In this document: piece after piece, positions 7,351 to 51,392 of the stretch | Position numbering within the stretch: position 1 is the stretch's first letter | How the letters are laid out: every line of letters begins with the position of its first letter | Source of the DNA: Ginglymostoma cirratum | Taxonomy: Eukaryota | Direction: 5' to 3' | DNA: 64,000 bases | Assembly (NCBI GenBank): GCA_024137785.1 | Contig: JAHRHZ010000150.1 | Coordinates: 755,627-819,626 of the forward strand | Notes under the pieces: generated by a model | Told to the model about the DNA's origin: nothing | The model's input: the letters and a program-made list of their open reading frames with translations, nothing else | The model's database searches: none | Translations under genes and position numbers: made by a program

Positions 7351-8567
7351 TCAATTGCTTGCTTGTTAAGTATAATCCTAATTTTTTTTTTTCGAAATTA
7401 GCAGTCGTCTTGCTAAGGCCTTACGCAGCTGCATGGTAGCTCTCGGTGAATGAGTGAAACAACAGAGAGAACAAAACTTCGTCAATATTCTTTGATAAAC
7501 ATCTCGAATCAGAGTCAGCTGGGGACAACGTTGGCACTTTTTTACCTGTAATCATACACTGAGTCTTGTTGTGCATTTTGAATGTCCCTATCTTTGAGCC
7601 AGGAGCTACAGTTTAACTCGCACGCTCTCAAAGGTGTGCACTAACATCTCCGAGGAGGTGGATACCTGGAATGAATGAGGAGTGCACTTCTGAGGCAGCG
7701 GTAGGTTCCCTACCTCTGATCCAGGAGAAGTAAGTTATGTATACACCTGCTCCACAGCTGTGTAATAGCATTTCGCAATGAGGGCATTGAAAAATATATC
7801 CCTCTATTTTTACCGTATTAGAATACTGTGCCCAGTTGAGATTCTGTCCTCTAATAAATGAGGAGGATCCTATGATTTTGCGAAAAACCACGATCCTACG
7901 AGAGGACTAGTTTTTATCTTACAGAAATACATCTCATGCATAAAAAAAAATCATCAAACAGTTCTACACAATTTTTGGGGAGTTAAAAAAATGAAAAACG
8001 GCACGCCGTAATTTGACATCTCTCAAATGGTTCTTGCAGTTTCGAAAAGAGAAGCACTTTCTACCCGTGCAGGAAACCAGTTACATTACTTCTGACGCAA
8101 CACGGTTTTTCGAGAAATTAACGGACCTTGTTAAGTACCGTCTTTCCAGTTTTACTTTCTTCTTTCTGTCCATTCTGAGATACAAAATGGAACAATGACG
8201 TGACGTCTAACATATTCTGCAGTACTTTGACGTTCAACGACGTGTTTCCCTCTCCCTCCTCAAAATAAGCACACGCGTGAATCTTTCCGATTTCTAGGAA
8301 TCTGCAAGGGGTCTGCAATATCATTGTACTTGTTTGAGGACCTTGTGGGTCAGTTACGGTCCATTCAAAGACAGGAGATCTGCTTTTCCTTGGATTGGAA
8401 TGGAGGGGGGTGTGGGGAGCCGTGTAGGGGTCAAGTGTCTACTGGAATCTCTTGCGATGATGTCACATCCACAGTTGTGCAATAATTCCGGTCCCAGGAC
8501 GAGAAGCTATGCAGTTTGTGAGAGCTGCACCAAAGTTTTGGCAAAAATCTGGAGCTTGGGTTGTGGA

Positions 8568-8755
8568 TGAGGTTGTTGACTTGCTCGTCGAGCTGGTTTG
8601 TTTTTGTTCAGACGTCTAGACAACAGGCTTGATGCCATCATCGGTGGAGCCCCCGATAAAGCTTCATCGGAAGTCTGCACTGATGATGTCACCTAGCATG
8701 GTGACGAAATCTCTGAACAAAAACAGCCAGCTCGGCGAGCAAGTCAACAACCTCA
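8568..8755. mobile_element. Palindromic (MITE-like) insertion in V promoter carrying a hammerhead-like core
   Basis: About 44-bp inverted arms at 8568-8612 and 8712-8755. Internal CTGATGA-T-GTCACC-TAGCAT-GGTGAC-GAAA at 8680-8709. Flanking repeat AGAGCTGYACCAA at 8521 and 8755. Confidence 0.8.
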
Positions 8756-8780
8756 GAGCTGTACCAAGTTCGGAGGGATA

Positions 8781-9688
8781 ATGTTCGGAGCTCTTTATCT
8801 GTATTTCCTGTTACTGCTGCTCCCAGGTAACCTTTCATTCTTGCTGAACTATTTGAGCCAGTTCTTATCCGTGTCGCAGAAGAACTTCGGTCAGCCAGAT
8901 CATTTGTAATTTTCTTCCTTGTTTTACTCTCTTTAAAAATTTTTCTAGTTGTTTCGTAAGATCAGAGAAGCAAGTACGATAGTGCCTCATGAAAGGAACG
9001 TAGATAAATGTCCCAATTGTTATGATGTTCAGGATGTGTGGTAATGCAGAGTGGATTTGACCTGGAAATTAGTTGAAAGATGCTCAGAGTGCGGAAATAA
9101 ATTTTGAAGTTTGAAGTCCTCTACTTTTTGCAAATATGTTCCGTTCTTTTCTGACCTACATTTTATTTAGGCTCTGCTCTTGGCTCATTGACTGAAAGTG
9201 GCAATTCCGAGCGTCCAAATAGCTCTCTGTCTCTCTGCCCCTGTCGTGGGGAAATGATATGTCTTTGTGAGGCGGGCGGATTTCAAACTGTGGAATGTGG
9301 GAAATCGGACAATACACCCGGTTCTGCTCAAACAACCGAATTTCATCACAAACCGTGTCTTTTTCTGTCCAACTTCTTTCCCTTAGGGAGTTGTGAAAAC
9401 GCCCTTGTCTCGCAAAGGCCAGAACGTTTGTCTCTACAAAAGGGGAACACGGCGGAGATGCACTGCTACCAAAACGACACTAACGAGAGCTACATGTACT
9501 GGTACCGCCAGCTCAACGCAGCAGGCCTGCAGCTTATGGCAACCTCGATTGGTACCTCAGATCCCAAATTTGAAGACGATTTCAAGGACAGGTTCAAAGG
9601 CACCAGGCACAGCCTTAAGTCGTGCAGCCTGAAAATTCTGAAAGTGCAGGCGTCTGATAATGCAGTTTATTTCTGTGCTGCTGGCGAT
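8781..9688 (+). CDS. TRBV: TCR beta V gene segment, apparently functional (leader 8781-8826; V exon 9387-9688)
   Basis: MFGALYLYFLLLLLP/GT...AG/GSCENALVSQRPERLSLQKGNTAEMHCYQNDTNESYMYWYRQ...FEDDFKDRFKG...DNAVYFCAAGD. Open after splicing; first Cys, Trp and YFC are intact. Confidence 0.95.
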
Positions 9689-9727
9689 CACAGCGATACA
9701 AACAAGTGTGAGGCTCTTACAAAAACC
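9689..9727 (+). promoter_or_regulatory. 23-spacer RSS
   Basis: CACAGCG - 23 nt - ACAAAAACC (consensus nonamer). Confidence 0.95.
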
Positions 9728-10412
9728 TCACGAACGGTTAGAGGGTTAGCAGATAGTTTGGAAAGAGCGAGTGGGAGACGGTCAAAATACATTGGCTCGT
9801 TACTGCTGATTGCACCCATTTACAATCTCTCAAATGGGTAAAAACACTCTGTAACTTTTTAGACACGTTTCATTATCAAATGAAAGGACCAGGGCCTCCG
9901 TTCAGTCGTCACTGAACAGACGGGACCGTCTCATAAATTGTAGGGGACAGAGATTTTCATCAGGAAAGAACTGTTATTTTTCTCATCTGCTTCCGGTTCT
10001 ATTGAATGACGTATCTTGAGCGAATTAAGAAAGAGGCCATTCAGATCACCGAGTCTGCACCGACCCTCCGAAGAGAGTCCTGCCCTTTACCCAGACCGCT
10101 ACACTAGCCCCAGAAACCCTCACTTACCATGGCTAAACCACTTACAACTCTTTGGATATTGCGGGAAATTTAGCAAGGCCAAACCAATATAATGCATACA
10201 GCGAAGAATGCAGTAGCAGGAATAATAGAAACGCCTTCTGGATGATCTGGACATGGTGCGATTCAATGAATGCGCCCTTCCGCCAGTTAATATCTGAAAA
10301 ATTTGTACCTACCCATGGCCAGAAGATGTGGGTGTTTTGGAGAGGCTACAGAAAATATTTTGCAGGATGTCGTCTGGAATGGGATATTTTAATTATGAAA
10401 AAAAATGCTTAG

Positions 10413-30462: not shown

Positions 30463-31234
30463 TAAAAGGTACTGCAGATGCTGGAGAATCTGAGATAACA
30501 AGATGTGGAGCTGGATGAACACAGCAGGCCAAGCAGCATCATAGGAGCAGGAAAGCTTGACGTTTAGGGCCTAGGCCCTTCATTAGAAAATGGTTAAAAT
30601 TGTATCAGAGATAAAAAGTACTGCAGATGCTGGAGAATCTGAGATAACAAGGTGTGGAGCTGGATGAACACAGCAGGCCAAGCAGCATCATAGGAGCAGG
30701 AAAGCTTGACGTTTCGGGCTTAGGCCCTTCATCAGAAATGGGGGAGGGGAACAGGGTTCTGAAATAAATAGNNNNNNNNNNNNNNNNNNNNNNNNNNNNN
30801 NNNNNNNNNNNNNNNNNNNNNNNNNNNNNNNNNNNNNNNNNNNNNNNNNNNNNNNNNNNNNNNNNNNNNNNNNNNNNNNNNNNNNNNNNNNNNNNNNNNN
30901 NNNNNNNNNNNNNNNNNNNNNNNNNNNNNNNNNNNNNNNNNNNNNNNNNNNNNNNNNNNNNNNNNNNNNNNNNNNNNNNNNNNNNNNNNNNNNNNNNNNN
31001 NNNNNNNNNNNNNNNNNNNNNNNNNNNNNNNNNNNNNNNNNNNNNNNNNNNNNNNNNNNNNNNNNNNNNNNNNNNNNNNNNNNNNNNNNNNNNNNNNNNN
31101 NNNNNNNNNNNNNNNNNNNNNNNNNNNNNNNNNNNNNNNNNNNNNNNNNNNNNNNNNNNNNNNNNNNNNNNGTTCTGATGAAGGGCCTAGGCCCGAAACG
31201 TCAAGCTTTCCTGCTCCTATGATGCTGCTTGGCC
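30463..31234. mobile_element. Tandem/inverted Penelope-derived hammerhead repeat spanning the assembly gap, 17-bp TSD
   Basis: Two tandem units with minus-strand cores (~30560 degenerate, ~30710 intact) and a plus-strand core at 31175-31202. GGCTTTCTAAACAGAGA occurs at 30446 and 31235. Confidence 0.75.
30772..31171. other. Assembly gap (400 N)
   Basis: Run of N. Confidence 0.99.
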
Positions 31235-39866: not shown

Positions 39867-40754
39867 ATGTTCGGTGCTCTTTCTCTGCATTTCCTGTTAC
39901 TGCTGCTCCCAGGTAACCTTCCAGCCTTGGTGAATTGTTTGAGCTAGTCATAATCTGCTTTTGGTGCCGGAGACGAATTTCTGTCAGCCAGATAATTTGC
40001 AAGTTTCTTTCTTGTTTACTCTCTTGAAAAAAACAAAGAAAGGGAATTGTCTCACAGTGGAATGAAAAGAGGAAATACCTTGTGTCCAAATAACCAGTCA
40101 CAATGCCCGCAACAGTGAGCGCATGAGGTCATTACCTCTCTCCCTATAATAGGGACATGTCATGTCTTAGGAATGCGGATGGATTTTGAGCGACATGGAA
40201 TGTAGGAAACCGGGGATACACCTGCGTCCCCGCAAACAATCGGCGTTGCAGCCAAACGTGGCGATGAAGAGCTTTCCCGAGTTTTGCTACTCCGTAAGTA
40301 AGTGTGCAGAGAACTGCAGTTCTGTCTGTGGGTGTCAAAGAGTCGAGAGGCTCTGTCAGTGCAGGTCCTGGTTCCCTTCGTAGAAATTGACTCATCTTAG
40401 TGATAGTAAACGTTTGAAATTTGACCCTATCTGTTCTCCCGTTTCTCCTCAGCTGGCTGCAGGAGCGCGCTCGTTTCCCAATGGGAGAACCGCTTGTCTG
40501 TTGGTGAAGGGAAGATGGCAGAGATGCAATGTTACCAAAACGACACTAGTGAAAACTGGATGTACTGGTACAGCCAGAGCAGAGGAGCAGGGCTGCAGCT
40601 CATAGCAACCTCCATGTTCGGATCTGAACCCACGCTTGAAGAAGGTTTCAAGGGGAGGTTTGAAGTCACTCGATCCAGTCAGAAGTCGTGCAGCCTGAAA
40701 ATACAGAGCTTGGTGCCGACTGATACTGCAGTCTACTACTGCGCTGCTAGTAAT
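39867..40754 (+). CDS. TRBV: TCR beta V gene segment, apparently functional (leader 39867-39912; V exon 40453-40754)
   Basis: MFGALSLHFLLLLLP/GT...AG/AGCRSALVSQWENRLSVGEGKMAEMQCYQNDTSENWMYWYSQ...DTAVYYCAASN. Promoter variant TGAGGTCA at 39778-39785. Confidence 0.94.
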
Positions 40755-51379: not shown

Positions 51380-51392
51380 GGGACAGGGAGCT
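51380..51392 (+). CDS. TRBD: TCR beta D segment GGGACAGGGAGCT
   Basis: Flanked by 12- and 23-RSS. First 9 nt are identical to mammalian TRBD1 (GGGACAGGGGGC). Open in all three frames (GTGS / GQGA / DRE). Confidence 0.95.

Follow-up and report, generated by a model that had tools for sequence, protein, structure and literature searches.

How does a T-cell receptor V gene stay in use once a retroelement has landed just ahead of its start codon, and from which promoter is it then read? The question is raised by the TRBV gene with its ATG at 8781 in the 64-kb stretch of DNA analysed here (the window), for which a sequence-only reading had suggested that a ribozyme core within an insertion was exapted as a replacement promoter element. 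Transposons can supply promoters and binding sites to host genes. For Penelope in particular, the capacity to supply promoters and binding sites is stated in the Discussion section of PMC2377424. A literature search whose coverage left out most subscription journals, and which is thus weak evidence, returned no account of this locus and no TRBV promoter carrying a Penelope or hammerhead insertion.

The TRBV locus and its native promoters

The window holds 10 V-like segments on the + strand, five of them with open exons, followed 3′ by a D segment (51380-51392) flanked by a 12-RSS and a 23-RSS and, downstream of the V cluster, by five J segments, while a constant-region-like exon lies outside the window in the adjoining stretch (L042:5818-6315). 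The D segment between its 12- and 23-RSS, the five J segments, the constant-region-like exon and the presence of TCR beta V chains among the PDB search matches identify the locus as TRB. Counting the window together with one further stretch (L041), 11 V-like segments were seen, 5 open and 6 broken; these V segments belong to a single family and share one type of leader, and all seven genome-wide leader matches lie at this locus, none of them a paralog of V 8781 carrying the same insertion. A run of 400 N (30772-31171) falls within the V cluster. In the introns of two V genes, ~250 nt past the ATG and probably at homologous places, we also observed TGAGGTCA (at 40124 and 44076).

The gene at 8781 had been described as functional, which our data bear out: it has an intact GT/AG intron and 116 codons without a stop, and every feature of a functional TRBV was found, namely leader, GT-AG intron, open V exon, 23-RSS, spliced mRNA and D, J and C segments downstream. 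Four runs were compared with positions 8000-9900: X1 and X2 (organism A, two studies), a raw-read RNA run (X20) and a DNA run (organism B), with the RNA origin of X1 and X2 taken from the GT..AG joint, which is absent in the DNA run; none of the runs listed as holding the sequence was recorded as RNA. Exact spliced leader-to-V contigs were present in two of the three non-DNA runs at a word depth of 102 and 96, with most intron and upstream contigs at 8-13 and a sibling's spliced contig at 124 and 156, word depth being a poor measure of expression. The depth of the leader-V contigs ended at the V end, as expected after rearrangement. Almost no V reads were found in X20 (~24 in 100 of run read). 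The contigs in X1 and X2 show V 8781 to be in use, spliced and apparently rearranged.

The motif TGA(T/G)GTCA, said to start 89-93 nt before the ATG in four other V genes, was measured at 93, 89, 90 and 89 nt (ATGs 3157, 24637, 27845 and 39867), and a sixth leader (43829, with a stop in the leader) carries a one-base variant at 89 nt. Before ATG 8781 the motif starts twice, at 8458 (323 nt) and at 8684 (97 nt), the two copies being 226 nt apart. By itself the 8-mer is common and near background, with 13 matches over the two strands of the window vs 8.0 ± 2.9 in shuffles; what carries meaning is its constant position ahead of V leaders. According to parts of PMC2685407, a TGAxxTCA CRE lies 80-120 bp before mammalian TRBV genes, and many mammalian TRBV promoters have no CRE.

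Four blocks are shared by the six native promoters: a GGAA-like block, the motif, an AT-rich box at +22 and an initiator-like block at +54/55, "box" and "initiator" being names for conserved blocks read from the sequence rather than mapped functions. GGAA occurs at most 25 nt upstream of the motif in 5/6 of these promoters, and the initiator-like block of the five siblings lies 34-38 nt before the ATG. In V 8781 all four blocks are found 5′ of the insert (Table 1), with the highest mean identity to its siblings and a leave-one-out score of 54.1 vs 45.4-57.4 in the siblings, although this is a weak test for the absence of decay, as a pseudogene promoter also scores 48.2. The sequence-only reading that the insertion displaces a V promoter therefore stands in one part and falls in another: the native motif was moved away from the ATG, but the whole native cassette, its own predicted start included, remains 5′ of the insert. 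Judged by its blocks, the native promoter of V 8781 is not broken, and the insert falls in the predicted 5′UTR.

Table 1 Features before and within the TRBV gene with its ATG at 8781 (positions in the window)
Feature	Position	Strand	Basis
Native GGAA block, 14 nt before native motif	8444..8447	+	Promoter block comparison
Native CRE-like TRBV motif, intact	8458..8465	+	Top core score of 6 promoters, 26.4
Native AT-rich box, motif+22	8480..8489	+	Aligned in 6/6 native promoters; score 8.4 vs 8.4-15.8
Native initiator-like block; predicted start ~8513 (motif+55)	8508..8515	+	Block at motif+54/55 in 5 siblings
Target-site duplication, left copy, 11-13 bp, 1 mismatch	8521..8533	+	Sequence comparison
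Palindromic Penelope-like pLTR stub: ~33-nt tail, left (antisense) arm, centre, right (sense) arm	8532..8755	.	Self-match, family alignment; ends from contig ends
8 substitutions (6 transversions) in left hammerhead, the last breaking the antisense motif copy at 8633-8640	8616..8635	+	Family comparison, assembly only
GGAA in insert, 15 nt before second motif	8669..8672	+	This copy and 2/30 others
Sense minimal hammerhead: core, bulged base, 6-bp helix II; helix III palindrome broken at 8710-8711	8680..8713	+	Sequence, family comparison, features from parts of PMC4209133
Second CRE-like motif	8684..8691	+	Overlaps hammerhead core, bulge, helix II and the element's probable start codon (8686)
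Candidate new start region, motif+57 to +62	8741..8746	+	Inferred; exact X2 contig begins at 8746
Target-site duplication, right copy	8755..8767	+	Sequence comparison
TRBV leader exon	8781..8826	+	Sequence; spliced joint in runs X1, X2
TRBV exon, V-set domain	9387..9688	+	Domain match; exact contigs in X1, X2
23-spacer recombination signal	9689..9727	+	15/16 consensus letters

A Penelope-like stub and its hammerhead

The proposed ~235-bp insertion, said to push the native motif out to 323 nt, was confirmed by a target duplication whose two copies lie 234 bp apart; with the insert removed, the motif spacing becomes 89. The insertion point is ~25 nt before the ATG, downstream of the native promoter, and the inverted arms span 8568-8755 by self-match. 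The insert belongs to a dispersed family (2790 first-look candidates, best 40 scored, with copies added by a second query), and the family alignment comprises 31 distinct full palindromic copies, taken from the top search matches after removal of duplicates. Aligned copies share a one-sided ~33-nt tail and two inverted arms with a hammerhead in each, and target duplications of a similar kind were seen by eye, uncounted, in several other copies. Half copies directly follow ORF remnants, with arm sequence after the matched ORF in 13/13 loci. Among four parent ORF pieces, RVT_1 was matched in two (E 4e-07, above the cut-off, and 1.5e-04, below it) and Pfam GIY-YIG in one (E 0.064, below the cut-off); for the ORF piece from L040, Pfam and PDB searches gave nothing useful and no GIY-YIG match, and a VVY...YIG motif is visible in it. 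Taking together the inverted pLTR arms, the tail, the target duplication, the minimal hammerhead and the parent RT ORFs, the insert is the end of a Penelope-like element, an architecture for which parts of PMC3846280 and PMC11167929 describe inverted pLTRs, an optional tail and a short target duplication.

Longer inverted versions of ~1.3-1.5 kb occur at L039:995-2264 and L080:1955-3467, which makes the stub the short end of a size series. The parent C-terminal ORF piece gave 61,428 first-look candidates genome-wide (best 150 scored), as for a very large Penelope-like family.

The hammerhead-like core that had been noticed around the motif at 8684, 97 nt from the ATG, proved to be a Penelope-type minimal hammerhead. 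The CUGANGA core, the bulge, G10.1-C11.1 and GAAA are all present at 8680-8709 and helix II folds, an assignment that rests on features described in parts of PMC4209133, where minimal hammerhead pairs are placed on opposite strands 100-700 bp apart; Rfam at gathering thresholds gave 0 matches in the window. Two changes at 8710-8711 relative to the family majority have removed the palindromic positions 15.2-16.2, marking a decayed member, and self-cleavage by this copy appears unlikely from its sequence. By analogy with an anole element (parts of PMC11167929), the ATG at 8686 is probably the element's start codon. One base present in 30/30 other copies is missing here at 8725; were it there, the element's probable start codon (8686) and the V leader ATG would share a reading frame.

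The motif is kept in the right arm of 10/30 other copies, in the left arm of 19/30 and in either arm of 22/30. Being a standard part of the family hammerhead, the copy at 8684 is explained by the element alone, and selection is not required to account for it. Within the insert the motif scored 12.6 (natives 17.7-26.4) and GGAA 7.1, and there was no match in the insert to the box or the initiator, with scores of 1.0 and −5.7 bits vs 8.4-15.8 and 6.8-12.5 in the native promoters. This copy ranked 2nd of 30 in likeness to the native promoter blocks, and its initiator score was equalled or exceeded in 27/29 copies. Of 81 possible insertion points between motif and ATG, 9 would give 89-97 nt and 41 would give 80-120 nt in the present orientation, compared with 0/81 and 11/81 in the flipped one; a spacing of 97 nt is thus not rare by chance and is weak evidence when taken alone.

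The substitutions peculiar to this copy are unevenly placed. Eight fall within 20 nt of the left hammerhead (permutation 0.006 within the copy), a density reached in some 20-nt window by 3/30 other copies, with a transversion share of 6/8 vs 0.22 in the family; the sequence of this cluster has a single match in the genome, and a change peculiar to this copy has created an upstream ATG at 8632. A local template switch was rejected as the source, since neither the sequence within ~300 nt nor the family majority supplied a donor (P 0.52-0.79), and selection, a single complex event or a fault in the assembly may lie behind the cluster. In the right arm, 2/77 sites depart from the family majority, a count as low in 1/27 other copies (mean 6.8, Poisson 0.034), and the left-minus-right difference is 10 here vs −6 to +6 in the others, the segments having been chosen after seeing the data and the compared copies being top search matches.

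The site in a related organism gives the insertion a likely minimum age. The DNA run of organism B, ~5% diverged (30/674 intron letters), holds both insert junctions (8424-8559 and 8726-8832), each with 27-29 element letters, which is under the 31-letter bridging bar and above what an empty site gives. The insertion likely predates the split of A and B. Divergence between A and B at the right junction was lower, though not significantly so (2/107 vs 30/674, P 0.30).

Leader structure and contig edges

Transcription from the native start would give a leader of 268 nt with a predicted fold of −142.1 kcal/mol (z −12, 44-bp stem) and five upstream ATGs, whereas the leaders of siblings are predicted to fold at −4.5 and −6.4 kcal/mol. 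A cap-distal hairpin of −61 kcal/mol inhibits translation, as stated with reference to earlier work in part of bioRxiv 2021.12.29.474417, and the native-start mRNA of V 8781 is predicted to translate poorly. A translatable mRNA nevertheless probably exists, since the ORF has stayed open while 6/11 V-like segments seen are broken, and it would most simply come from a start within the right arm. A new start is still likely needed, owing to a native-start mRNA that would be hard to translate and not to displacement of the promoter.

The edges of the contigs cannot prove transcription starts, and they point both ways. The X2 leader contig starts at 8746 (ATG−35) and so includes element sequence; in the DNA run the break caused by the repeat comes 20 nt earlier, at 8726, and the X2 contig of a sibling has 36 letters before place 8780, reaching ~ATG−37, at most 3 nt from its own predicted initiator. 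However, position 8746 is also ~10 nt inside the 3′ strand of the hairpin, where reverse transcriptase halting on a long mRNA begun at the native start would leave an identical edge. In X1, an upstream contig ends at 8541, its last 31-mer starting 2 nt before the predicted native start, a hint of native use. No piece across 8616-8677 was found among the pieces listed for the four runs, which has no bearing on whether an mRNA crosses the insert because the DNA run also has none and thousands of pieces are unlisted. The contig edge at ATG−35 and the conserved right arm are weak hints in favour of a new start. A separate contig of X1 joins both arms (8622-8729) with letters resembling A-to-G changes relative to the family sequence, possibly from RNA editing of another copy's hairpin.

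Competing explanations and known systems

We favour, at somewhat less than an even chance, the reading that the right arm of the retroelement provides a working start through the hammerhead motif, which is the most likely single mechanism and is closely trailed by use of the native promoter. A palindromic Penelope-like stub would have landed before the TRBV ATG with the native promoter left intact upstream, and its right arm would likely give the translated mRNA a new start via a GGAA and CRE-like pair that mimics the native pair. CREB/ATF-type factors would bind 8684-8691, and productive transcripts would begin near 8741-8746, past the hammerhead, with a sibling-like leader of 35-40 nt. The match between ribozyme core and promoter motif would be a chance pre-adaptation brought by the element family and not assembled on site, and the native promoter may still fire and help to open the locus. 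Speaking for a new start are the use of the gene, its intact ORF, the poor translation predicted for the native leader, the 8746 edge, the conserved right arm, the GGAA with the second-best promoter likeness among 30 copies, the junctions in organism B and a spacing of 97 nt within the mammalian 80-120 bp. Against it stand the undecayed native cassette, the lack of box and initiator in the insert, the X1 break at 8541, a motif common in the family at a cheaply obtained spacing, a reverse-transcriptase stop as another source of the 8746 edge, and the many mammalian TRBV promoters without a CRE. The fuller version, in which the hammerhead catalytic core was co-opted, as DNA, as a TRBV CRE and later tuned (ribozyme disabled, GGAA gained, mirror arm degraded) so that the gene survived the leader hairpin, is more tentative still, at roughly one chance in three.

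A complete, undecayed native cassette facing an insert without box or initiator may instead reflect another history, in which the native promoter drives from ~8513, the stub is a tolerated 5′UTR passenger with an incidental motif, and enough protein arises through unwinding, editing, shunting or reinitiation at the stop overlapping the ATG. We hold this to be a serious but tentative contender, as probable as the tuned co-option. The X1 contig break adjoining the native initiator fits it, as do the ease with which motif and spacing arise by chance and the fold of this copy, which at −119.2 kcal/mol is weaker than in 29 other complete copies (−122.6 to −170.6; one N-containing copy reaches −110.5). 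Yet the 44-bp outer stem has hardly been altered. The reading frames of four upstream ATGs close at a stop that overlaps the V ATG, as reinitiation would want, but that stop-start overlap is the native context in 3 siblings too, the change creating the ATG at 8632 adds a further obstacle, and the conserved right arm is left unexplained.

A start inside the right arm that has no need of 8684-8691, with the native motif acting from ~280 nt or a locus enhancer acting on a weak pyrimidine-purine initiator, would also fit the poor translation expected of the native leader, the contig edge at 8746 and the undamaged native motif. Penelope pLTRs and the tail region have promoter-like properties of their own according to parts of PMC2377424, but the stub keeps only ~20 nt upstream of the hammerhead, the Drosophila Penelope start lies upstream of the hammerhead in the relevant parts of PMC4209133 and PMC2377424, and the candidate start sits at +57 to +62 from the 8684 motif, near the native +55; we consider such a start improbable. 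Far less probable is a long native-start transcript whose insert is removed by splicing or cleaved by the hammerhead. The sense core and helix II are intact, as cutting would demand, but the helix III palindrome is broken, single minimal hammerheads failed to cleave in vitro in the experiments covered by parts of PMC4209133, and cleavage would remove the cap; nor does splicing fit, with element letters from 8746 in the high-depth X2 contig and no insert-skipping joint among the 15 of 26 joints listed.

If the preferred start in the right arm via the hammerhead motif is real, this locus would cleanly illustrate how a single sequence can change roles, from catalysing as RNA to serving in DNA as a promoter element, and would show how an abundant retroelement can save or alter the use of V genes where antigen receptors are encoded. 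Under co-option, every stub of this very abundant family would be a ready-made GGA-plus-CRE promoter seed. If the preferred start is false, there is still a −142 kcal/mol leader to account for, through which the receptor chain would have to be translated. With two motif copies 226 nt apart before the same gene and uninterrupted siblings as controls, the matter is cheap to test.

As in known cases of transposon-supplied promoters, a mobile-element fragment here offers a promoter motif to a host gene; unlike them, the motif would be a ribozyme catalytic core, and the native promoter is intact upstream. The inverted arms, the one-sided 33-nt tail, the short target duplication and parent ORFs that match RT and, weakly and below the cut-off, GIY-YIG recall the endonuclease-bearing Penelope-like elements in the described parts of PMC3846280 and PMC11167929, whereas the present insert is a 224-bp stub without an ORF in the leader region of an antigen-receptor V gene. 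With the metazoan minimal hammerheads of Penelope-like elements, as portrayed in parts of PMC4209133, it shares the core, the bulge before helix II, the G10.1-C11.1 pair and the absence of loop 3, but helix III of the sense arm is mutated and the antisense arm degraded. Finally, the 89-93 nt of the native motifs and the 97 nt in the insert resemble the 80-120 bp of the TGAxxTCA element in mammalian TRBV promoters with their CRE or decamer (parts of PMC2685407 and PMC2119020), with the difference that the second copy here, a putative factor site, comes from a retroelement ribozyme.
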